This document shows, piece after piece, positions 5,028-25,400 of a stretch of 64,000 nt of DNA. The position numbers and the translations under genes are program-made. Positions within the stretch are counted from its first letter, which is position 1. Every line of letters starts with the position of its first letter. The notes beneath the pieces were generated by a model. The model worked only from the letters and a program-made list of their open reading frames with translations, was not told the DNA's origin and made no database searches. Origin of the DNA: Candidatus Bathyarchaeota archaeon (GTDB lineage: Archaea > Thermoproteota > Bathyarchaeia > 40CM-2-53-6); the NCBI GenBank assembly GCA_963706285.1, contig CAVPLU010000010.1, positions 32,001-96,000 on the forward strand, read 5' to 3'.

Positions 5028-5858
5028 TCATAATCGCGTGGGCTTTCCCGGATTGCCACGGGACATGTAGAAGTCGACAAACCCTGTCTTCATCAGGAAA
5101 GGTGCCAGGAGTATCAGGAGCGCCACGATGCCGACCGTTATGATTGAAGAAGCGAAGATCGGAGACATCGCGCTTCGATTGAGGGCAATTCCTATCGAGG
5201 CCCAGATTACGACAAGTCCGAAGGCGAAGTCTCTACGAGTCAATACCATGAAGCTACTGATCAATAGAGCGATTACAATTACCATGCCCGTCCAGAGCGC
5301 TTGTGTCGGCTCTGGGATACCGGGGAATAGAACGTTCAACACTGATGCTATGTTGGCAATGATGGCAAGCGAGATCCATCCGAGATAGACGCTGATCGAT
5401 AGATGCACAGCTAGCTTGATGTTTCGAGGCGCTTCCCTCCTTCCAATACCCAAGCGCTGGTAGATCGAAAGCAAGCAGAGGAGGAGGACCGCGATCGGCA
5501 CTAATGAAAAAACGAAGAGCTGCGGCAAACCGTACGAGTAGTGGAAGACGAGTAGCCAAGATATGTTAGCGACAGCACCAAAAAGGTACAGGAAACCTAT
5601 CTGCGCCAGGTAGCTTTCCTTACGTTGGCTGGGCCTGACCTGATAGACCATGAAGACGATTCCCAGAACGTAGATGACCCCCCAGATGGAGAATACGTAT
5701 CCTGGAGGCGTGAACAGGTTAGGATACGAGTCGGAGACCTGACCTGTTGTCACTCCATTGAATGGAAGAACGTTAGCTAACATATTCACTACAAGCGCAG
5801 AGGCAACCGCAGCCACATTCGCCATTTGATAGGTTAGCGAATTGGCACTCGTTGCCAT
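5028..5858 (-). CDS. TspO/MBR-related tryptophan-rich membrane protein
   Basis: VSDSYPNLFTPPGYVFSIWGVIY and SVYLGWISLA motifs; start placed at MATSANS, not the ORF-track start at 6344. Confidence 0.75.
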   Translation of the reverse strand: MATSANSLTYQMANVAAVASALVVNMLANVLPFNGVTTGQVSDSYPNLFTPPGYVFSIWGVIYVLGIVFMVYQVRPSQRKESYLAQIGFLYLFGAVANISWLLVFHYSYGLPQLFVFSLVPIAVLLLCLLSIYQRLGIGRREAPRNIKLAVHLSISVYLGWISLAIIANIASVLNVLFPGIPEPTQALWTGMVIVIALLISSFMVLTRRDFAFGLVVIWASIGIALNRSAMSPIFASSIITVGIVALLILLAPFLMKTGFVDFYMSRGNPGKPTRL

Positions 5859-5875
5859 TAGTGCTGACTTCCCTG

Positions 5876-6259
5876 TTACTTGAACTCCTTTTCTTCCCAC
5901 ATGTCGTAGGCAGTGGCTGTGGACGATGCTTGAGCAATCATGGCTAGTGCAACAACTAGATGGAGAACGGTGATCGCCCAATGAATTGTTCCTTCCGTAA
6001 ATACATAGAGGGGAATGCCGATGACCCCATTCAACCCCGCCATGGCTGGAATGGCTTTTGATATTCGCTTCACACGGTTCGGCGCAGAGGTCTTCATAAT
6101 TTCGCGATAGTTCATGATTGCCAAGACTAGAACTGCAAGCCCGACCACGGAATGAAGGTATAGGACACCGAATATTTCCGAAAATGCAGTTACAAAGAAC
6201 TGAATGAAAGCAAGCCAGATCAGAAGGTAAAGACGCGCCCACAACTTCAACGCGTTCAC
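5876..6259 (-). CDS. hypothetical 4-TM membrane protein
   Basis: 127 aa, four hydrophobic segments with intramembrane His, co-oriented with the downstream gene. Confidence 0.65.
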   Translation of the reverse strand: MNALKLWARLYLLIWLAFIQFFVTAFSEIFGVLYLHSVVGLAVLVLAIMNYREIMKTSAPNRVKRISKAIPAMAGLNGVIGIPLYVFTEGTIHWAITVLHLVVALAMIAQASSTATAYDMWEEKEFK

Positions 6260-6525
6260 CAGATGACGAGTCTACCTGTGACACCATAAGGCTTTGCATA
6301 CGGTGACGTGGTGGTCGGTCAATTCGCGTCCTAGTGGTCGTCAATAGGTTCTGACCTTCCTCGATCTGTATTGTTGGATCTGAGTGTGCACACGCAAGAC
6401 TGACGAAACCAAGGGACGACGGTGCATGACAACCCAGGGAGATATCCTAGCCTATTCTTGTCAGGATGGGGATTTGCGTCAGTCTTATTTCCATCCTATC
6501 CACGAGCGTTACTGGTGTGATTGTG

Positions 6526-7044
6526 TTGCCTTTCTGCCCGAAATGCGGCGCGGAATTACCTGCTGATGCAACATTCTGTATGAAATGCGGTAGACAGATG
6601 ACTGCTACGTCAGCAGTCGAAGAGCGAAGATATTCGAGAAGAGAGAAACGCGAGAAAGATGAGAAGCAAGAGAAGGACGAGAAGCGCGAGAAGGATGAGA
6701 AGTCAGGCGACAGGACTGGAGTCTTTGTTGGCGGTCTTATCCTGATATGGTTCGGTATCTCGTTCTATCTTGTGCAGGCACAATACATTGGCTGGAATGA
6801 ATGGTGGCCATATCTGCTCGCAGGAATCGGAGTGATTCTAATCGCTCAAGCAGCCGTGCGATACTCAACTGTGCATCGCAAAGGCCCGGTGATGGGCCCC
6901 TTGATCGGAGGCTTAGTTTTGCTGATGATCGGTCTCGCAAGCATAATGGGGATGAAGGATTGGTGGCCGTTTGTTCTAATCGCGATAGGCATAGTGGTGA
7001 TAATCGGCGGCGCGACAGCAAGAGCGCGGACGCCAAGAGCCTAA
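6526..7044 (+). CDS. zinc-ribbon protein with EK-rich linker and LiaF-like TM region
   Basis: FCPKCG..FCMKCG, EKREKDEK repeats, four TMs with WWP motifs. Confidence 0.8.
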   Translation: MPFCPKCGAELPADATFCMKCGRQMTATSAVEERRYSRREKREKDEKQEKDEKREKDEKSGDRTGVFVGGLILIWFGISFYLVQAQYIGWNEWWPYLLAGIGVILIAQAAVRYSTVHRKGPVMGPLIGGLVLLMIGLASIMGMKDWWPFVLIAIGIVVIIGGATARARTPRA

Positions 7045-8177
7045 ATGAACCATCGCGTGATTGCCCGATACAACACGTGCTCAGCGGTCGTGCGGAATCT
7101 AGCACGACCGAAGATCCTGAAGTACTGACCGCCCAAGCATTCAACCATATCGCCTATGTCGTACCTCGGCAACAGACAGGATGAAATGAGGAGTCTTCCC
7201 CACTCACCTCTTCTCATCTCATACAGCATCTTGACGCCATCTCCAGTGATTACTTCAAAGAAGTATGCGTCATAGTTGGGCGAAACGTAAGGCAGATCGT
7301 CTAGTTGCTGAGCGAAGACTCCCTCTGTTGCTGTGTACATCTCCACGACAGGCGCTTGACCATAGAAATACTGTAGAACAGGAGCATACTTCCAGTGTAT
7401 CTTCGGAACACTGGTGCAAAAGAACGCGCCGATCTTCCAGAACTCCTTAGGAAGCTTGTGGTGTTTGCGTTTCACATACCTGGCGAATGAGGTGATGATT
7501 GGCGCGACACCCATGCAGACTCTAACATCTTCGTCTTTGGCGAGCTGGTAAGCTAGCTCGAACCTTTCCTCCCAGGCCTTCTTCGTGACGCTGCTGCCAA
7601 GTGCGTCAATTTTCTCTTGAGGAGGAACAAGATTCGTTCCTGCAAAAGCTGGATTCAATCTTGCGTAGGTTCCCGAACTGAAGCCACATGTTTCAGCTCC
7701 GCTGGTGGCTGGCATCGATCGCGTGCGCGAAGGGAAGTTAAGGTTGAGGACTTTGCCCTGGAGAATATCGAATCTCCCAGTTCTAAGAACATGGTTTACT
7801 ATTGCACGTGCTCCGCAAGAGAGAATCTGATTCAGATGCTTGCTCGTGACGGGAAGGATTTTCGGTAGATCGGTGGTTCCTCTTGTCATAACCCAGGCTG
7901 CCGGTGGTTCAGGCAGCAACGCTTTGAAATCGCCTTCAGTCACTTTGGCTATGATAGGTTGGAAGTCAACATAGCTACTCGGCTGGAACACGCTCCGATA
8001 TTCATCAATAGAAAGAGAAGAGGCGACTTTGAGATTCTTACCATACTCGGTACTGCTGTAGTCCTTGAGAAGACTCTGCAGCGTTCTCTGTTGAGCTTCA
8101 GCTGGGTCGCGTAGTGAGTCATGCCATGGCTTCACTACGGCTTTCAGAGATTCTACCGCTGAAATATTCAGAGACAT
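7041..8177 (-). CDS. GH3 acyl-acid amido synthetase family protein
   Basis: TRGTT..PKILP, EMYTATEG and LPRYDIGDMV motifs. Confidence 0.8.
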   Translation of the reverse strand: MSLNISAVESLKAVVKPWHDSLRDPAEAQQRTLQSLLKDYSSTEYGKNLKVASSLSIDEYRSVFQPSSYVDFQPIIAKVTEGDFKALLPEPPAAWVMTRGTTDLPKILPVTSKHLNQILSCGARAIVNHVLRTGRFDILQGKVLNLNFPSRTRSMPATSGAETCGFSSGTYARLNPAFAGTNLVPPQEKIDALGSSVTKKAWEERFELAYQLAKDEDVRVCMGVAPIITSFARYVKRKHHKLPKEFWKIGAFFCTSVPKIHWKYAPVLQYFYGQAPVVEMYTATEGVFAQQLDDLPYVSPNYDAYFFEVITGDGVKMLYEMRRGEWGRLLISSCLLPRYDIGDMVECLGGQYFRIFGRARFRTTAEHVLYRAITRWFI

Positions 8178-16254: not shown

Positions 16255-16478
16255 GAACGAACGCTGTGTAATACCTCTACTTGATCTTTACCTGCACATT
16301 CGTTCCAAGATTCGCGGCAAAACTGCCGGTTCTGGCGAGTTTGTCTCTGGATCTGGGTCTCTTGGTGCGCATCACCACCCCGGTTCTCAGGTCCTCTAAC
16401 ATTTATCGACTAGGAGAAGCGGCGATTCTCGCGTTCGCTCCTCCATGGGATGCTTAGAATGTTTCGCGGGGTGGTTGT

Positions 16479-16997
16479 GTGCTTAAGGGTACACATCTGA
16501 GAAGGGTGAATGCTTATTGGCGGTGCTCTGTTCGCGTGTCAGTTCTCATCATAGCGCATCTTGAGCGGATTGCTGTTAGGGAGCATTGGATGCTGTCAGA
16601 TCTGGCTAGGATGCTGATCTGCCTAGGCGCGGCTGGCACCTATCTGAGATTGGGAGATCCGGAAGTCTCGGACAGGTTCAAGACGTTGGCGAGCTTGGGT
16701 GGAGCACTCACCGCATTAGATACAACTTTGGGTCGAGTGAGTCGTCGCCATCACGCCTCTCGTGGGCTGGCTAGATCAGAATTGTTAGCTCTACGCCTAC
16801 CAACGGGTCTCACAAGCCTCATCACCACATATGCGAGGACTAGTGGGAGATCACGAAACGAAGCCTTGACGATGTTTCTGGAGCGCGGCTTAATCATCTA
16901 CCTGAAAGCAGAAAAGATACTACTAGAAACAATCCAATCAGTCGAAGCCGAGTCCGTCAAGAGAATGAAACCAGATGAAGCAGTCGCTGGTGTATGA
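16479..16997 (+). CDS. hypothetical protein with ribbon-helix-helix-like segment
   Basis: LALRLPTGLTSLITTYARTSGRSRNEALTMFLERGL fits the CopG/Arc RHH pattern; start uncertain. Confidence 0.5.
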   Translation: MLKGTHLRRVNAYWRCSVRVSVLIIAHLERIAVREHWMLSDLARMLICLGAAGTYLRLGDPEVSDRFKTLASLGGALTALDTTLGRVSRRHHASRGLARSELLALRLPTGLTSLITTYARTSGRSRNEALTMFLERGLIIYLKAEKILLETIQSVEAESVKRMKPDEAVAGV

Positions 16998-17459
16998 TTT
17001 GCAGGAGCCGTTCCGTTGGATAGCGGATGTTACTGTGATGGAAGCGTTCGAGTCCGGAGTGTTGGATTTGCCGGATTTCTATTTCACAGGTGACGATTAC
17101 AGGTACCGCTTTGAGCCTGAGGCTAGACAGCGATTCATCGATCTCATACGGACACGATTCAACACAGGCGTGAAGTACAAAGATCGAACTATGAAGCGGG
17201 ATACGGTCATCGAGAAGAAGGCAGTAGAGCTTGGCAGTCACCTTACAGGCAGCAACAGCAGGCTCGATTTTTCGGAACCTTCTCCCGATATGCATCGAGC
17301 AGACGATAAGGAGCTGCGGAGACGAATCCTCAGATCTATCTCGATCGAGACGCACGAACGCTTGGAATTGGAAGAAGCACCCTGCACTGCTTGAAACGTA
17401 GGGCGAATGAATCTCGTCCGTTCAAGATCTACAGGCCGGTTTGGAATATACTCGATTAA
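16975..17459 (+). pseudogene. cas1: Cas1-solo (casposase-type) C-terminal fragment with HTH
   Basis: KQSLVYDLQEPFRWIAD Cas1 motif; after a frameshift near 17340, ARTLGIGRSTLHCLKRRANESRPFKIY (HTH tail); N-terminal half absent. Confidence 0.85.
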
Positions 17460-18136
17460 TGGAGAAGAACCAAGTGAAGAGAAATCGCAAAAACGCATCT
17501 GCTCAAGGCAATGAGGACGAATAAAGCCACAGCATTAGTCGGACTCTGCTTCCGAGCACGATGTGGCGAAGATCTGTCTGGATTGACCAGAAACTATCAA
17601 GCGTCTGGCGGACGTCCGTGGTACATTCACGGTGTATCTGGCATATCTTCTTCAAAGGAGAATACATCAATGGAACGTCTAGAAGAATGTAACTTGCACA
17701 GCTGCGCAGAAATTGGTGCCAAAAACGCGCTGGAATGGCTCAGACGTACCAAAGGTCGAAAAGTATCTTGCGAGCTACGCAAGAGATCGCCAACCACAGA
17801 AGCAGCGCGACAGACGGTGCCGGCTAAACGTACGGATCTCGCCGTGAAGATCTGCATCAACTCATCAAGTGACTCGGCATTCGGCATACTGCTCGTAGCG
17901 TCAGTTCTATCGAACAGCGTTTGAACTCATAGCGAGCAAGGCAGGAAGCAAAACCGGGCTTGCGATACTTGACAAGAATCCGGTAAGACGGGACGGGAGA
18001 GATTCTACTTGAGCCGAAAGATCGTCGCGTGTGTATTGGACTCAGCGTCACGCTGCGAATCACTCGTTGGGTCACCCGACTTGCGGGGAGCAGGGATTTG
18101 AAACAAGGAGAACCGCTGGTGTGTGTACGAACTTGA

Positions 18137-18730
18137 TTGCAGGTAAACGGAATGTGGATCGGGAGCGGTCACTATTTGGACCTTAGGCTCGCTCATTGGC
18201 AGGTACAGGATGCTGAGAAGCTTGATCTTGCTGGACTCTCGGATGGTTTTCGCATTCGCGGTTTTCTTCATGCACTCGGAAGGATGGTCTATGACGTCGC
18301 ATACTCGATCGGATATCAATACGCCCTGGTACCCAGCAATTTCCTTTTCGACTGGGTGCATCGCGATTTGCTCTGTCTTATCTCCTGACATGGAGGTGGA
18401 TTGTCAGGGCATACCGAGACAAGTTCACGCGTTCTTTGCATGCTGACGGTGACCAGGATGAATCTGCCGTGGCAGATGTTGTCAAGGTCGCACACGGTAT
18501 CAAATCGAAGTGACTTCGTAGTTGGAATCATGCAGAACGTGGTCAACTCGAGCGAATTGCTGGTCTCTGTGGAACAATTTCCTTGGAAAGAAGATTCAAG
18601 ATTGGACGAACTAGTCAAGACCTTCTCAAACAACATCGCGGCAAGTATTCTACACTGGCGACGGCTATATCAGTCTCCGTCTCCATTATCACCCCAAGCA
18701 CCAATGCCGATCTGGAACAATCCAACGTAA
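18137..18730 (+). pseudogene. putative gene remnant with one in-frame TGA (18386-18388)
   Basis: ORFs 18137-18388 and 18401-18730 share a frame; no recognisable family. Confidence 0.25.
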
Positions 18731-18875
18731 AGTTCGTCAATCTTGTCCTAGAAATCGCAGCAGGCAAATATCTCTTTTAGGTCTTTGCCATCTAGGACGA
18801 TCATTCTGCGTTCTCCTTGCCAGGCTACCTTGACGGCCCCCAAGCACGCTGCAACCCATCCCCGGACAGGCGTTT

Positions 18876-19017
18876 TGTGTGTGGTACGCTTGGTGCGAGC
18901 ACCCGAATTTGAACCGTCGTGGTTGAGGTAGTGTGTGTGATACCCTTGGTGCGAGCATCGGAAATTGAACCCTTGATCGTCGTCGCCGCTCTTGGTGCGG
19001 TCATCCAAATTTGGACC
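18876..19017 (-). repeat. three degenerate direct repeats of a tRNA 3' end (25-bp core)
   Basis: TGGTGCGAGCACCCGAATTTGAACC (18891-18915), TGGTGCGAGCATCGGAAATTGAACC (18947-18971), TGGTGCGGTCATCCAAATTTGGACC (18993-19017); the first two also share an adjacent tgtgtgtgRtacSct. Confidence 0.75.
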
Positions 19018-19281
19018 GTCGTTCAGGCGTTGATTTTCAGTGCTTGCACGCACCAGTCAATGCAAACGCGACAACGAGTCGTTCATCTGGGTGGTGAGTG
19101 GAAATCCTCATTCTACTAGTCTGAGCTTTGAGTTCATACCAATACTGAGATTAACACCCGTGCTCCAATGCTGGCAATAGCTCTCTATCGCATGGAACAC
19201 ATCTTGCCAATGTCGCCCAGAAGTTTGTTAGGGATGGATGAAGGACTGACAGCGAGAGCCGCCATCGATGGGAGGTAGCCT

Positions 19282-20256
19282 ATGACACAGAGCGGTTCTA
19301 GAATAGCGGTCTTCGCGGCCATCATCGGCAACCTGATCATCGCGATCATCAAGTTCATTGCGGCGGCAATCACCGGCTCATCGGCCATGATTTCCGAGGG
19401 CATCCACTCGCTCGTCGATACGGGAAACGGTGTCCTCGTGCTGCTCGGAATGAACCGCGCCAAGCAGCCTGCCGATGAAACCCACCCGTTCGGCTACGGC
19501 AAGTCGCTCTACTTCTGGACGCACATCGTGGCGATCTCCATCTTCGGCATCGGTGGTGGCATGTCGCTGTACGAGGGCATCTCGCACATTCGCCACGTCG
19601 CACCGGACGCCGAGATGGGCGATCCCACGGCGGCCTACATCGTGCTCGCCATCTCGCTCCTGGTCGAGGGCGGATCATTCACGGTGGCCATCAAGCAGTT
19701 CCTGCAGGCCAAGGGCGATATGGGCGCCTGGCAGTTCATCAAGCAGTCGAAGGACCCGAGTCTCTACACGGTAGTGCTCGAGGACAGCGCGGCCATGCTC
19801 GGTCTCATCTTCGCGTTCCTCGGGATCTTCCTCGGCCACCTGTTCAACAATCCGTATCTCGACGGCGCAGCATCGATCGCAATCGGCCTGCTGCTGATGA
19901 GCGTGGCCGGGATCCTCGCGTCGCGGACCAAGGGTCTGCTGCTGGGCGAGGGCGTGAACCCCGACGAGCTCGCGGACATCCGGCGGCGCGTGGAGTCGGA
20001 TCCGGCGGTCGAGCGGGCCGGCGACATCCTCACCATGTACATGGGCCCGCACGATCTGCTCGTGAACATGGGGGTGTGCTTCGTTGCAGGTACCACGGCC
20101 GAGCAGATGCACGAGGCGATCCGCCGCATTGAAGCCGACCTGCGCAGCGCATACCCGGAGACCAACCGCGTCTACATCGAAGCCGAGTCGCTGCCGGTCG
20201 AGGAGACTGAGGGCTCTCTGAAAAAGCGTGAGGCTCGGTCATCTCAGATTGTGTGA
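19282..20256 (+). CDS. cation diffusion facilitator (CDF) family transporter
   Basis: SEGIHSLVD, HPFGYGK and VVLEDSAA motifs; GGAGGT Shine-Dalgarno at 19271-19276; high GC. Confidence 0.92.
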   Translation: MTQSGSRIAVFAAIIGNLIIAIIKFIAAAITGSSAMISEGIHSLVDTGNGVLVLLGMNRAKQPADETHPFGYGKSLYFWTHIVAISIFGIGGGMSLYEGISHIRHVAPDAEMGDPTAAYIVLAISLLVEGGSFTVAIKQFLQAKGDMGAWQFIKQSKDPSLYTVVLEDSAAMLGLIFAFLGIFLGHLFNNPYLDGAASIAIGLLLMSVAGILASRTKGLLLGEGVNPDELADIRRRVESDPAVERAGDILTMYMGPHDLLVNMGVCFVAGTTAEQMHEAIRRIEADLRSAYPETNRVYIEAESLPVEETEGSLKKREARSSQIV

Positions 20257-20540
20257 GGAATAGCCTAGCCTCATATGATTTCCATTTACAGTGCGTCGCT
20301 AGACTGATTGAATGAGATGTTTCTTCAATTTCCAAATTCAATAACGATATAGATGTAGAGGATTCTTCTACGCTTAGTTTTTTCACAAATCTATGTGCAG
20401 AAAGACAGGATTTGCGATTTCTAGTCTGTCTAATACTATTACACATATTTCTGGCGGAGAATTCTGCTTTCTAAGATAGTCTCTTCTGGCATCTAGGGGG
20501 CGCGTTTGGGAACAGAATTAGGAATTGTGTGTGAGTATGC

Positions 20541-20565
20541 TGGTGCGGGCGACCGGATTTGAACC
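20541..20565 (-). repeat. tRNA 3'-end fragment (att/TSD-like; Gly- or Leu-like acceptor)
   Basis: Minus strand GGTTCAAATCCGGTCGCCCGCACCA is T-loop, 3' acceptor strand and CCA; the tRNA 5' portion is absent. Confidence 0.8.
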
Positions 20566-20650
20566 ATAACGAATGGAGGAGCGTCATGCGTCTTCGCCGA
20601 AGTCTAGGTCCCGGACTAGGTGAAGCCGAGAAAGTGCAAGGCGTTCTGAA

Positions 20651-22192
20651 TTACCTAGCCAGTTCCACTAGGTCGCTCCAGACTTTAGCGGGCTTCCAGT
20701 TGTAGACGATTGTCTTCAGTCTCGTCATTTCTTCTATGCTGTATCCTATTCCTTCCCTACCGAGTCCAGAGTCTTTGTTTCCGCCGAAAGGATAGTAGCC
20801 GACGCCGTGGCGGGGAGCCGCGTTTATCGTTATCTCTCCTTCTTCAAGTCTCTTTGCGACTTTTCTCGCGAGGTTAAGGTTGAAAGTGAAGACACACGAA
20901 TCCAAGCCATACTTCGACTTGTTCGTCAGGTCAATCGCTTCATCTACATTCTTCACAGACATTATCGGGATTATGGGACCGAATGTTTCTTCCCACATGA
21001 TGTTCGCGTTTGTAGGAACTGGGTAGAGCACCGTTGGATAGTAGTAGTTACCTTCGAACTTCGCTCCTACAAGCGCCTTGGCGCCTTTGTCGATTGCATC
21101 AGTAACGAGGCCATGTACCCTTTCAACGGCGCCTGCGATTGATGAGTGGTCCAACTTTGACTGTGGGGTCGCGTGGGTCGCCAACCTTGTACGTTCCAGC
21201 CTCTTCCACGATCTTCTCAACAAACGTTTCTACAATATTATGCTCAACGAGGACTCGGCTTACTGCGTCACATCTCTGCCCGCTGTAGCTGAGAGCAGCC
21301 TTTCGCGATCTCTTTCACCGCAAGATCAAGGTCAGCGTCTCCGAGAACTATTGCGCATCCTTTCCCGCCCAATTCCATGTGCAGTTTCTTGATGCCTGCA
21401 ACTCGGGCCAGCCTCTTTCCGACTTCGGTGCTTCCCGTGAAACTGATCATGTCAATCTTCTCGCGGCCGGCTAGATACTCGCCGATTGGTCCCCTTCCTG
21501 TCACGACATTGAGTGTGCCCGCCGGAAGTCCAGCTTTTTCCAGAAGTCGAGCGAACATGAGAAAGGAGAGTGGATCTTGACTTGCTGGTTTCACAACGAC
21601 CGAATTTCCCGCGAGAAGTGCCGGGATCACTTTGGTTGAGGTAATGTAGAGTGGATAATTGAAAGGTGAAATCGCTAAGACGACCCCCAGCGGTTCTCTT
21701 AGTACGTCTGCGGAGGTACCTACGGTCTCGTCTGACCAATCGCCTGGGATGTGTTCTCCTCTGATCTTGCTGTAGTCCTCCGGGGTGAGCTTCAGGCGCT
21801 CGGCCGTGGATCTCACTTCACCCTTTGCATTAGCCAATGTCTTGCCTGCTTCCAGCGACAGAATATGGACAAAGGAGTCTTCGTTGTCGAGCAGCAACTC
21901 GCGCGTGCGCAAGGAAGATCTCGATCTTCTCGACTGCGGGGACGGTCCTGATGGCGTTTCTGTGAGTGTCTGATGACTCGACCGCTTGGTCCGCTTCTCG
22001 TTCTGAAGCGTTCGGGATGGTCGCAACTAGACCATTATCGATTGGACTCCGGACTTCGATACGTTGCTCCAGCGAGGTCCATTTTCCATCAACTAGCATT
22101 TTGAATTCCGGACAACCGGACGCCGCAAGTGAGTAGATTGGGTTGAAGATATCTCCGAGTTTGTTCGCTTTCGCAACTTCCGTCGTATGCAA
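20651..22192 (-). CDS. gapN: non-phosphorylating GAPDH / aldehyde dehydrogenase, GapN type (three frameshifts)
   Basis: ISPFNYP, FTGSTEVG, MELGGK, SYSGQRC, EETFGP and PFGGNKDSG across ORFs. Confidence 0.8.
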
Positions 22193-22317
22193 TTCCTCAT
22201 CGTACGGACGGTGGGTGGTCGATATAGGTGACTCCCTACAGCACATGCTCTCAAGGTTGAGCTCGGATCGGAAGTCAGCGACCTCCGAGAATCTTCCTGC
22301 CTCTCCCTGAGAGGTAT

Positions 22318-23356: not shown

Positions 23357-25262
23357 TTACTCTTCGAGTGTCGAGACATCTCCGATTGGGAGGCCTAGTT
23401 CTTTCGCTCTGAGAAGTCGCCTCATGATCTTGCCGCTTCTAGTCTTCGGGAGCGAGTCCACTATGTCGATCTCAGCAGGCACCGCAATTGGGCCGACGGC
23501 TGTTCTCACGTGTTTCTTCATCTCGTCAATTATTGTCGGTGACTTGTGGTATCCGACGCGCAGAATGACGAACGCCTTGATGATTTCGCCTTTGAGTGGG
23601 TCTGGTTTGCCAATGACTGCTGCCTCAGCCACTGCGGGAAAACTGACTAGTGCGCTTTCAACTTCGGCGGTGCCAATTCGGTAGCCTGAGGTTTTGATGA
23701 CGTCGTCTGATCGTCCTTTGACCCAGAAGTATCCATCCTCGTCCTTGCTCGCTATGTCGCCTGCCTGGTACCATCCCTTTATGGTGTTCCAGTAGACTTC
23801 GTATCGAGCTGGATCCTTGTTTATCGTCTTCATCATTGCAGGCCATGGAGTCTTGATCGCTAGATATCCGCCCTTGTTTGGTGGAAGCACATTGCCGTCT
23901 TTGTCGATGATTTCGGCGACTATTCCAGGGAACGGTTTTGCGGCTGAGCCAGCCTTGAGAGGTAGGCAAGGCAGCGGCGTAATCAGGATCATTCCTGTCT
24001 CTGTCTGCCACCATGTATCCATGATCGGGCATCTGTCGTCGGCCGATGTTATTGTGGTACCAGAGCCACGCTTCGGGGTTGATTGGTTCTCCAACTGTTC
24101 CGAGGAGTCTAAGGCTACTCAGGTCGTATTTCTTCGGAATCTCGTCACCACATCTCATCAGTGCGCGTATGCCGGTTGGTGTGCTGTAGAGTATCGTTAC
24201 TTTCTTGTTCTGGACGATCGACCACCATCGTCCGGCGTCAGGCTGATCTGGAGCGCCCTCGTAGAAGACTTCTGTGGCGCCGTTGATGAGGGGTCCGTAC
24301 ACGATATAGCTATGGCCGGTCACCCAGCCAGGATCGGCAGTGCACCAGAACACATCGTTGTCTTTCAGATCGAATATCCATTTCGTAGTAATGTAGAGTC
24401 CGACCATGTATCCGCCGTGGGTGTGGACGACTCCTTTGGGACGTCCGGTGGTTCCTGAAGTGTAAAGGAAGTACAACGGATCGTCTGAAGCCATTCGCTC
24501 GGTCTCACACTTCTCCGATGCTTTATCCATCAATTCGTCCCAGTACAGTGCGGGAGCCGGTGACTTCGTGATAGGCGTGTTAACTCTTCTCACATAGACT
24601 ACGTTCTTGAGGGTTGGAACATCAGTCATTTCGCCGACGATACTCGCAAGAGCGAGAATCTTTCCATGATAATGAGAGCCGTCAGCTGTTACGAGGAGTT
24701 TAGCTTCTGAATCTCTGATTCGCTCCTGAAGAGCACCTGCGCTGAATCCAGAATACACGACGGTGTGGATTGCGCCGATCTTAGCGCATGCAAGCATTGT
24801 CACGAATTGCTCGGGAATCCTGGGCAGGTAGATTGCTACTCTGTCTCCCTTTTTGATGCCTAGGTTCTTGAGAGTGTTTGCGAACTTGCATACGAGCGTG
24901 TTGAGTTCTCCGTAAGTGATGGCTCGATTCTCACCCTTCTCGCCTTCCCATAGAATAGCGACCTTGTTCTTTGTCGGCGTGTTCTGGTGTCTATCCAGTG
25001 CGTTTTGGATGATGTTGCATTGTGCGCCAACAAACCATCTGGCCCACGGATACTTCCATTCTAGGACTTTGTCCCACTTCTTGTACCAGTCTAATTGATT
25101 TGCAATGCCTTCCCAGAATTTCTCGACATCATCGATCGACTCCTTGTAGATAGAGTCGTAATTCTTGATCCACGCCTTCTCGACAATTGACTTCGGCGGA
25201 GGAAAGATTTCCTTTGTTCGAGACAGAGTTTCGACAGCGTCAGGGCCGCTCTCCTTACTCAT
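23357..25262 (-). CDS. acs: acetate--CoA ligase (frameshift near 24045)
   Basis: [36 protein letters not shown] and [12 protein letters not shown] motifs. Confidence 0.93.
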
Positions 25263-25400
25263 TGGAACATCTCTTCGGAGTTCGGCTGGGTCCACGGTTA
25301 TGAGATTTTCGGCCTGTAACGATTTGGCAGGAAACTATGATCTAGCTACAATCATGACTGTGACCATAACTCTGCAATTGTGACTCTATGCAGTTGGAAC

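Follow-up and report, generated by a model that had tools for sequence, protein, structure and literature searches.

Four same-strand copies of a 25-bp sequence resembling a tRNA 3' end lie in the genome of a Candidatus Bathyarchaeota archaeon, downstream of a remnant of a cas1 gene. The CRISPR adaptation machinery has been proposed to descend from casposons, and the arrangement raises the question of whether the array is a CRISPR array in the making, as an earlier note on this DNA had suggested, or the residue of another kind of insertion. The question was addressed in the 64-kb stretch that holds the array (the window), in the source genome as a whole (G000, an assembly 89% complete with 7.5% contamination), and in relatives. 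The window locus is probably a decayed hotspot at which elements of a known type have inserted, rather than an incipient CRISPR array. The behaviour of Cas1-type integrases in genomes is documented by few natural examples, and many occur in this lineage. They include elements in tandem that have an identical duplicated 14-bp site in common, next to a leader-like fragment of tRNA, as well as ends carrying a copy of the target, solo ends in stacks, and small elements that lack cas1 and carry ordinary genes.

The repeat array and its surroundings

Both strands of the window were scanned with the consensus 25-mer of the earlier note, with up to three mismatches allowed. There were exactly four matches, all on the + strand, at 18891-18915, 18947-18971, 18993-19017 and 20541-20565; the pattern was absent from 100 of 100 dinucleotide-preserving shuffles, so that the chance expectation is 0. 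The scan thus bears out the four same-strand copies reported before, and both their identities to copy 1 (22/25, 20/25 and 21/25, i.e., 3, 5 and 4 mismatches) and their spacing (31, 21 and 1523 bp) were reproduced. The flank said to be common to copies 1, 2 and 4 is also present, a GT-run plus 7 nt preceding each; copy 3 has CGTCGTCG where the others have the GT-run. ARAGORN found 0 tRNA genes in the window and Rfam, at the gathering threshold, 0 families, in agreement with the earlier statement that the locus holds no tRNA. The full repeated unit is a module of about 50 nt that consists of a GT-run, a 14-mer ending TGGTGCG (in tRNA sense, CGCACCA + 7 nt), an 18-nt tRNA-like core, and GTCGT. 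The features of the locus are as follows.

16295..20603, no strand: variable 4.3-kb block, with the flavin-reductase gene on one side and the 3' end of the aldehyde-dehydrogenase gene on the other
16356..16369, + strand: 14-mer ending TGGTGCG, then a degenerate CA-rich start (nhmmer only E 0.09)
16393..17389, + strand: repeated segment, ORF 16479-16997 joined to the cas1 remnant (blastn/tblastx, own genome)
16969..17441, + strand: casposase (Cas1-family) C-terminal remnant, about residues 241-400 of about 405 aa
17442..18868, no strand: 1.4-kb stretch without conserved content, between the cas1 remnant and the terminus
18869..18883, + strand: element terminus, GGCGTTT + GT-run (reverse complement, CA-run + AAAACGCC)
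18884..18939, + strand: module 1 (nhmmer E 5e-17), with 14-mer 18884-18897, tRNA-like core 18898-18915, spacer and GT-run 18916-18939
18940..18985, + strand: module 2 (nhmmer E 4.9e-15), with 14-mer 18940-18953, core 18954-18971, spacer and CGT-run 18972-18985
18986..19048, + strand: module 3 (nhmmer E 4.2e-10), with 14-mer 18986-18999, core 19000-19017, degenerate spacer and terminus 19018-19048
19049..19062, - strand: inverted 14-mer (its + strand begins CGCACCA) at the end of the stack
19282..20256, + strand: cation-diffusion-facilitator transporter gene (PF01545, E 1.1e-34)
20527..20565, + strand: module 4 (nhmmer E 4e-12), with GT-run 20527-20533, 14-mer 20534-20547, core 20548-20565

The whole 4.3-kb block is missing from the closest relative, G001, whose contig C38 (~92-93% identical) has just 68 unrelated nt between the equivalents of window positions 16294 and 20604. 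This absence is an insertion-type polymorphism and counts for a casposon origin of the block. At its left side, the 14-mer at 16356 is a possible, weak candidate for the left junction of the cas1-remnant element; its first 7 nt are unlike those of the 14-mer at 18884. The segment at 16393..17389 has further copies in the source genome at C14:88.9 kb (94%) and C9:1-933 (84%), and its ORF 16479-16997 matched nothing in Pfam or NCBIfam. In the 1.4 kb that follow the cas1 remnant, the ORFs gave no Pfam match, and tblastx gave no match to the relatives' cas1 loci or to the source genome; a single element spanning the cas1 remnant to 18883, with this stretch inside it, is putative. The right terminus at 18869-18883 is the only recognisable element terminus in the window, and it fits the (CA)n-GAAAAC(G) consensus drawn from both ends of the duplication-flanked elements of relatives described below.

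Several parts of the stack recur elsewhere in the source genome: the CGT/CGA-type terminus of module 2 at C10:139.8-140.8 kb, and the layout TGGTGCG-core-spacer-CGCACCA, as at the end of the stack, at C3:29560, C16:58077, C14:93347 and C9:27691. A fifth, inverted unit at 19020-19062 was considered and rejected, since nhmmer did not report it even with filters off. G+C is raised in the transporter region (0.587 in 19001-20000 vs ~0.50-0.52 nearby), and we read the transporter gene between modules 3 and 4 as carried or trapped cargo. Module 4 sits 85 nt beyond the aldehyde-dehydrogenase stop codon and, together with the 3' part of that gene, is shared with a paralogue at C3:42495-43462 (92.6%), the homology ending at the GT-run. 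Contigs from four metagenome sequencing runs (among 20 listed runs, each with a share of 0.12 or less and none recorded as RNA) diverge exactly before 18876, before 20526 and after 20564. In these four runs contig cover is missing at 17309-18715 and 20324-20524. Joints between units are each seen in one contig, with less than 40 nt on a side, which is too little to establish variants of array length.

The Cas1 remnant is derived from a casposase

The match of ORF 16975-17394 to PF01867 (E 2.3e-6) is confined to profile positions 226-280 of 283, and the earlier identification of a Cas1 remnant 1.4 kb upstream of the array holds: it is a Cas1 C-terminal piece. In tblastn the full-length relative P0009 covers the remnant at aa 242-361 and 366-397; full-length relatives of the remnant are ~400-410 aa long. 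The best solved match of P0009 is PDB 6OPM, the M. mazei casposase-DNA complex, with E 5.7e-77 over residues 6-402, i.e., full length. The second-best is a CRISPR Cas1, at only 1.3e-23. The 172-aa ORF upstream was entertained as a frameshifted Cas1 N-terminus and rejected, as it has no Pfam or NCBIfam match and the remnant starts at residue 242 in tblastn.

All cas1 pieces in the source genome are remnants, and full-length copies are found in relatives. The locus is probably immobile now, because the assembly lacks an intact casposase and everything has decayed. Three of the five cas1 remnants lie within 4 kb of a module, vs 9.4% of the genome, a naive binomial P of 0.007 that overstates independence, since the remnants are paralogous and the modules are clustered in islands. 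Modules were also present within the fetched stretch at 9 of 10 full-length cas1 loci from relatives. A tie between the units and casposase-type Cas1 is supported. The full-length cas1 loci of G064, G055 and G059 have only cas1 in common, at 67-82% DNA identity; the elements are diverse, because these loci share the gene and not the flanks. The idea that the units are the ends of recently active, conserved casposons was rejected on the same ground, there being no common flanks at these loci.

The modules form a genome-wide family

With nhmmer, 53 module copies were found at E<=0.01 on 9 of the 21 contigs of the source genome. Matches to an IUPAC pattern for the unit occurred in all 9 further genomes of the genus, and to a reversed control pattern in none. 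Modules are often stacked two to four deep at a spacing of 46-58 bp. At 16 sites in the source genome a GT- or CGT-run is followed by a 14-mer and then by a CA- or CGA-run; judged from the sequence, these can be read as two elements whose termini abut one 14-mer from opposite sides. The histogram of GT-run to CA-run spacings peaks at 14 (7 cases), a test that is not clean, as the GT-to-GT control gave 6 at 14. The search beyond the locus that the earlier note had proposed showed the unit to be scattered and not local, and linked to cas1. Likewise, the note's association of the units with Cas1 stood, and its placing of a proto-CRISPR at this locus did not, the family being genome-wide and genus-wide.

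Compared over 48 nt, the window units show a similarity of only 56-77%, and the closest relatives of each are units at other loci rather than its neighbours. Module 1, for example, has its nearest relatives at C9 and C16 (0.85), vs 0.71-0.77 for its window neighbours. The sequence that separates the window cores also belongs to the conserved family unit (GT-run and spacer). The first 7 nt of the 14-mers differ among 16356, 18884, 18940, 18986 and 20534, no pair of window 14-mers agreeing there, and the copy at 19049 is inverted.

The likeness of the units to tRNA is limited to a fragment. No tRNA gene was found at related loci (13 loci by ARAGORN, 6 by Rfam), and the closest true tRNA 3' end in the source genome matches the units at a mean of 18.1 of 25 positions. 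A 5-bp T-stem together with CCA was found at 20 sites in the source genome; only 2 are at or near unit matches, and both belong to real tRNA-like genes. The units lack the paired T-arm and acceptor stem of a functional tRNA or tRNA-like RNA. An intact or intron-split tRNA at copy 4 was rejected, because the 85 nt before the dehydrogenase stop contain no 5' acceptor strand and because ARAGORN and Rfam were negative.

Relatives carry elements flanked by 14-bp duplications

In relatives, identical 14-mers flank elements of 1.9-8.6 kb, some with a full-length casposase. In G055:C3, three identical 14-mers delimit a tandem pair of elements, 8.0 and 8.6 kb long; the 8.6-kb element has a full-length cas1 inside and an end that adjoins a core. 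Other identical pairs bound elements of 6.2, 5.6 and 1.9 kb. In the source genome five 14-mer pairs differ at 1-2 of 14 positions. Inverted CA-run or CGA-run ends were seen at 9 of the 9 duplication-flanked elements inspected, several with GAAAAC beside the run. Elements without Cas1 but with the same ends carry ordinary cargo genes, which gives substance to the earlier description of the locus as cassette-like. Also upheld was the appeal to casposon integration next to a tRNA 3' end, whose expected anatomy is present in the units: a 14-bp site, duplicated in relatives, that starts CGCA in tRNA sense, inverted termini, and an upstream tRNA-like stretch.

Of the 19 ORFs in the G055:C3 tandem elements 10 were tested, and none of these gave a PolB or integrase match; no PolB was found among the window ORFs tested either. 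Matches to PF00136 and PF03175 in five relatives all lie outside bounded elements. One PF03175 match, in G064:C4, is 11 kb from cas1 fragments, and among 11 listed full-length cas1 genes only 1 has PF00136 within 10 kb, again outside a bounded element. The tyrosine-integrase profile PF00589 had 0 matches in the source genome; nor did it match any of the ORFs tested in the window or within duplication-flanked elements. Integron-like cassettes were rejected, as no tyrosine recombinase is present in the source genome.

Origin of the array

The array is probably a fossil stack of casposon-like end-and-target junctions at an insertion hotspot. A casposase of ~405 aa with a C-terminal extension would recognise the core, which resembles a tRNA 3' end from the T-loop to the acceptor strand, and would join inverted (CA)n-GAAAAC ends to two strands 14 bp apart; with such staggered joining the 14-mer would be duplicated. 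Many elements carry a core and a CGCACCA copy just inside their ends, and because of this each insertion would bring a new landing site. Later elements could then insert into earlier ends, giving module stacks at 46-58 bp spacing and islands of small cargo elements. In the window the newest piece would be the truncated-cas1 element with its terminus at 18883, adjoining three older solo ends, modules 1-3, and module 4, by the dehydrogenase gene, would be another target or end. Such nested insertion requires loss of the bodies of three older elements; we infer this loss, the insertion order and the binding of the core by the casposase. Because no pair of window 14-mers matches as a duplication, we infer integration in the window from the relatives. 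For stacks and tandem elements the best reading is that integration took place repeatedly, as the earlier note had proposed under the name of iterative integration; tandem casposons and solo ends beside CGCA motifs are already described in the portions of the casposon literature consulted.

A different source for the units would be tyrosine-recombinase islands inserted in a tRNA 3' end, the units being left-over attL and attR sites after collapse. Such scars are real in the genus. At G008:C2 an island of 5,067 bp, which encodes a PF00589 integrase, is flanked by an exact 26-nt repeat running from T-loop to CCA, the same extent as the 25-mer of the window; relatives hold 2-9 integrase matches each; and in the excerpts consulted, M. 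mazei casposons and integrase elements have a common tRNA target. The G008:C2 repeat, however, copies the tRNA-like end exactly and lacks GT- and CA-runs, while the window units are diverged and carry GT- or CGT-runs and a conserved 14-mer. Further, the elements that members of the family delimit have inverted termini, a feature not produced by att recombination, and the absence of PF00589 noted above applies both to the source genome and to the ORFs tested inside duplication-flanked elements. The att-scar origin, which had been named as the alternative, is therefore most unlikely for the window units. Nor do the data favour a dispersed intergenic repeat of the REP or MITE type, mobilised by something other than a casposase or by slippage, with nearness to cas1 as a by-product of variable islands; we regard this as very unlikely. 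The ~53 copies are indeed clustered in islands, as expected of such a repeat, and this clustering weakens the statistic for association with cas1. Many units lie at gene 3' ends (module 4 and its paralogue, for example), hairpins could form at some, which are paired with an inverted CGCACCA, and the lack of an intact casposase in the source genome favours spread by other means. Against this, the identical 14-bp flanks, the inverted CA-run ends and the CGCA start agree point for point with casposase biochemistry as given in the published excerpts, a full-length cas1 lies inside duplication-flanked elements, and the nearer kinship of window units to units elsewhere than to their neighbours speaks against slippage.

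That the stack works as a proto-CRISPR, transcribed and processed to guide-like RNAs with the cores as repeats, is scarcely credible. The regular 46-56 bp period, the single orientation and the Cas1-family gene nearby invite the idea, and solo casposon ends have been speculated, in the literature excerpts consulted, to be an early step towards CRISPR arrays. But there are only three units, their low mutual similarity is not that of CRISPR repeats, the would-be spacers are family sequence, and Rfam matched no family in the window. The cas1 gene is a remnant, as are all others in the source genome, and PF09827 (Cas2) had 0 matches in that genome at 89% completeness; the CRISPR-intermediate reading of the earlier note is not supported at this locus. 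A bolder form of the casposon reading, which we think rather unlikely, holds that the stacks are true casposase-made arrays. Each end would carry a leader-like landing site (core + CGCACCA), so that integration would be self-targeting and would produce ordered, same-strand, end-derived repeats with a period of ~50 bp and cargo genes strung into islands. This would be a PolB-less, Cas1-only system between transposon and repeat array, and it may be active in relatives with an intact casposase. If true, self-targeting casposase arrays would be an intermediate of the kind that the casposon-to-CRISPR scenario calls for.

Comparison with known systems

Family-2 casposons, as described in the sections consulted of Krupovic et al. 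2016 (PMC4779613) and Hickman et al. 2020 (PMC6977970), make a 14-bp duplication that starts 5'-CGCA and overlaps a tRNA 3' end, need <=30 bp of upstream tRNA, and occur as tandem elements and solo ends. The elements reported here resemble those of Methanosarcina mazei and Aciduliprofundum boonei in an integrase homologous to 6OPM over its full length, in a 14-bp target, duplicated in relatives, that starts CGCA at the 3' end of a tRNA-like sequence, and in a conserved upstream tRNA sequence, inverted ends, tandem sharing of the duplicated site and solo ends. They differ from published casposons in that PolB, a defining casposon gene, was not found in the elements examined, and in the tens of modules per genome. 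Unlike in family 2, the ends are short CA-runs, many with an internal target copy, the targets are tRNA-like fragments and not detectable tRNA genes, and there are small cas1-less cargo elements. No prior description was found of casposons in Bathyarchaeota or Bathyarchaeia, or of PolB-less ones, though supplementary tables of casposon papers may list related elements or TIRs; a search of the literature on MITEs and non-autonomous casposon-like elements gave nothing relevant. If confirmed, casposase-driven elements could spread without a polymerase gene, build genomic islands and generate short-period repeat stacks.

Archaeal tyrosine-recombinase elements, in the portion consulted of Krupovic et al. 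2019 (PMC6563490), likewise duplicate 3' parts of tRNA genes and form arrays or islands at one site, but they have exact direct repeats, no inverted termini and an integrase inside, and the window units lack these. Like CRISPR arrays, the system involves a Cas1-family enzyme, inserts that come to lie next to a leader-like sequence, and a site of fixed length that is duplicated; it differs in having no near-identical repeats, no set-length unique spacers and no Cas2, and its inserts are transposon ends or whole elements. A parallel is also offered by the solo-TIRs of M. mazei, isolated ends beside a CGCA-bearing site that are read, in the published excerpts, as remnants of degraded elements. 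Those number one to three per genome at separate loci, whereas here there are ~50, often stacked two to four deep at spacings of 46-58 bp.

The repeat stack and its variable block

The earlier note had described four same-strand tRNA 3'-end repeats close to a Cas1 gene, at a locus with no intact tRNA. A 25-mer pattern search of the window placed the + strand cores at 18891, 18947, 18993 and 20541, and sequence comparison bore out the claimed positions, identities and gaps; at ≤3 mismatches the 25-mer had four matches in the window vs none in 100 shuffles. ARAGORN found no tRNA gene in the window and no Rfam family reached its gathering threshold there, which upholds the lack of an intact tRNA, and a neighboring ORF matched the Cas1 family. 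The features of the locus are:

16975-17394, Cas1 piece, an ORF matching only the last 55 profile positions of PF01867 (E 2.3e-6)
18869-18883, element terminus, agreeing with the end consensus
19049, inverted 14-mer led by CGCACCA, which closes the stack
19282-20256, cation-efflux gene (PF01545), between copies 3 and 4

The terminus is followed by three modules, the ~50-nt units that hold the cores, one of them carrying a CGT-type run. The G+C content of the cation-efflux gene is raised (0.587 vs ~0.51). Module 4 lies 85 nt beyond a seemingly frameshifted dehydrogenase gene and, up to its GT-run, is common to the window and an intact dehydrogenase paralogue in an island on contig C3 of the source genome, G000. 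Contigs from four wetland metagenome runs broke at 18876, 18920, 20526 and 20564, the module limits. In the closest relative, G001, with ~92-93% identity on both flanks of the block, window position 16294 is joined to 20604 through 68 nt of unrelated sequence, so all 4.3 kb represent variable DNA at a hotspot.

The aldehyde-dehydrogenase and acetyl-CoA-synthetase-like genes (20651-22246 and 23357-25295, both - strand) are each split into overlapping ORFs by what look like frameshifts. Possible explanations are decay of duplicated copies, errors in the assembly, or the presence of a second strain (contamination 7.5%). The intact paralogue (507 aa) is at G000:C3:41819-43342.

The module family

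The common sequence of aligned copies extends beyond the tRNA-like part: a GT-run (or CGTCGTCG), 7 nt, TGGTGCG, an 18-nt core ending ATTTGAACC, then GTCGT or GTCAT. Fuzzy searching of G000 (2.13 Mb, 21 contigs, 89% complete, 7.5% contamination) gave 36 25-mer matches over 10 contigs, several of them in small clusters where neighbors lie 46-58 bp apart. An iterated nhmmer profile (E≤0.01) found 53 module copies on 9 contigs; they cluster in islands, with 15 copies in C3:23.8-65.4 kb and 11 in C9:4-36.7 kb. The unit's IUPAC pattern matched all nine other genomes of the genus, 2-64 times each, as well as some genomes of other genera, while a reversed control pattern had no matches in the same genomes. 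The repeats are not confined to the window locus. Named homologues of the housekeeping genes carry the label Candidatus Bathyarchaeota, at 75-80% identity, and the lineage is assigned on that basis. Ten ORFs between modules of the C3 island, picked by length, were tested; the genes found there (catalase-peroxidase, ketol-acid reductoisomerase, rhomboid, MFS, SDR, flavodiiron protein and glycosyltransferase) are ordinary accessory genes.

This 42-kb, module-rich island starts (G000:C3:23655-23858) 47 nt downstream from a tRNA gene that Rfam detects, with its first module in the same sense as that gene. In sister termini, CGA/CGT triplet runs replace the CA/GT runs, with the adjoining GAAAACGCC unchanged:

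G000:C10:139812-140796, CGA/CGT-type terminus
G000:C14:93347-93420, CGA/CGT-type terminus
window 18978-18985, CGA/CGT-type terminus

The Cas1 remnant and its link to modules

Among 1214 candidates, 521 proteins were related to the 139-aa Cas1 ORF at E≤0.001, the longer ones being mostly 400-410 aa. The full-length relative P0009 matched PDB 6OPM, given as the casposase-DNA complex of M. mazei, over residues 6-402 (E 5.7e-77, vs 1.3e-23 for the best CRISPR Cas1). Judged by sequence similarity, the window Cas1 is a casposase, present only as a remnant. P0009 tblastn found no full-length casposase in G000, only pieces, three of which start at residue 242 (window, C9:515, C14:89523) and a fourth, on C21, at residue 247. 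Further copies of the ~1-kb segment that holds the remnant exist in G000, 94% and 84% identical to it. Casposase matches occurred in 21 of 59 genomes of the family, including 13 in G064, with full-length genes in G009, G055, G058, G059, G062, G064 and G065.

A 172-aa ORF without a family match (16479-16997, +) is joined to the cas1 remnant. The breakpoint, residue 242, is identical in the window, at C14:88.9 kb and at C9:1-976, as if a single deletion derivative had given rise to all three by copying.

The suggested link of repeats to cas1 is supported: three of five G000 remnants lie ≤4 kb from a module, vs 9.4% of the genome. The naive P of 0.007 overstates the association, since the remnants are paralogous to one another and modules occur in clusters. 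Modules were also present in 9 of 10 full-length cas1 loci fetched from relatives, in mixed orientation relative to cas1.

Elements bounded by 14-mers

Sites in relatives that read GT-run / 14-mer / CA-run or core can be paired. In G055:C3 one 14-mer occurs three times, bounding a tandem pair of elements that measure 8.0 and 8.6 kb; a core follows the last copy, and a full-length cas1 lies inside the second element. Other identical pairs bound 6.2 kb (G059:C1), 5.6 kb (G059:C3) and 1.9 kb (G062:C45), and five pairs in G000 mismatch at 1-2 of 14 positions. Element ends were inverted in all nine cases inspected, with CA-runs, or CGA-runs in the sister form, often followed by GAAAAC. Bounded elements without Cas1 carried hemerythrin, flavodoxin, an EamA transporter or a solute-binding protein. 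The 8.0-kb tandem element, which has a cas1 remnant, carries genes for an AAA-type ATPase and a DUF4365 protein (L015, the G055:C3 locus, 257-1882 and 5529-7343), possibly defence-type cargo.

Family-2 casposons are described as having a 14-bp target duplication with invariant 5'-CGCA that overlaps a tRNA gene end, as requiring as much as 30 bp of tRNA sequence upstream, and as losing integration on mutation 12-17 bp upstream; tandem copies and solo ends beside CGCA are also described (PMC4779613; PMC6977970). Here, likewise, the 14-mer in the tRNA sense is CGCACCA plus 7 nt, tandem elements occur (G055:C3), and the core plus GTCGT covers about the same upstream footprint. Unlike known casposons, the bounded elements include some that have cargo genes but no Cas1, and neither PolB nor tyrosine integrase was found in them among the ORFs tested (10 of 19 in G055:C3; elsewhere picked by length). 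Supplementary files aside, we found no literature description of casposons of this lineage, or of PolB-less ones.

Five relatives have PolB matches, which lie outside bounded elements save for one in G064:C4, a PF03175 match of protein-primed type (E 1.9e-14) 11 kb from cas1 fragments (match and fragments together occupy 956660-957331 and 967881-968892). It is possibly a casposon of the classical, PolB-bearing type, in a genome that also holds PolB-less elements.

Proposed origin of the stack

Many ends are long, running from a CA-run through ~15-25 nt and an inverted core to CGCAC(CA), as in the 8.0-kb element (at both ends), the 6.2-kb element (at one end), and C16:58077 and C14:93347 in G000. 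Within such an end lies a copy of the target. An array of two modules would then be an element end adjoining its target, and a deeper stack would arise when a later element landed at the site within an earlier end. We infer this course of events from sequence, with support from the modules' closer kin elsewhere: window modules are 0.77-0.85 identical to modules at other loci and 0.56-0.77 to their neighbors, which argues against local slippage. Speaking against a tidy reading of the locus, no two window 14-mers agree as a duplication, no conservation was found in the 1.4 kb separating the cas1 remnant from the terminus, and older element bodies are missing from the stack.

The earlier note's alternative, collapsed att scars of tandem islands from a tyrosine integrase, describes something real in the genus: in G008:C2 a 5,067-bp island (locus L025, 282207-287299) with an integrase gene inside is flanked by an exact 26-nt repeat running from T-loop to CCA. 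Those repeats, however, are devoid of GT/CA runs, and no integrase was matched in G000; this source is unlikely for the modules. A working CRISPR-like array at the stack is not supported either. What stands of the note's interpretation is a casposase-linked, iterative, cassette-like structure; what falls, given units spread through genome and genus, is a singular CRISPR precursor, and we class the window locus as a probable variant of casposon-type elements. Two kinds of mobile element use the same tRNA tail: the casposon-like family and the type that the G008:C2 island represents.

Among true tRNA 3' ends of G000, the one closest to the modules is that of an intron-rich gene (C4:162292-162426), which we read as Gly-like from its acceptor and CTGCCAA loop. 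It matches the modules at a mean of 18.1/25, and 19 other ends scored 13.7-16.2. All 16 Rfam tRNA matches of G000 span 57-129 nt, mostly with introns; ARAGORN gave only three doubtful tRNA genes genome-wide, and at least two further Gly-like multi-intron tRNA genes were missed by both.
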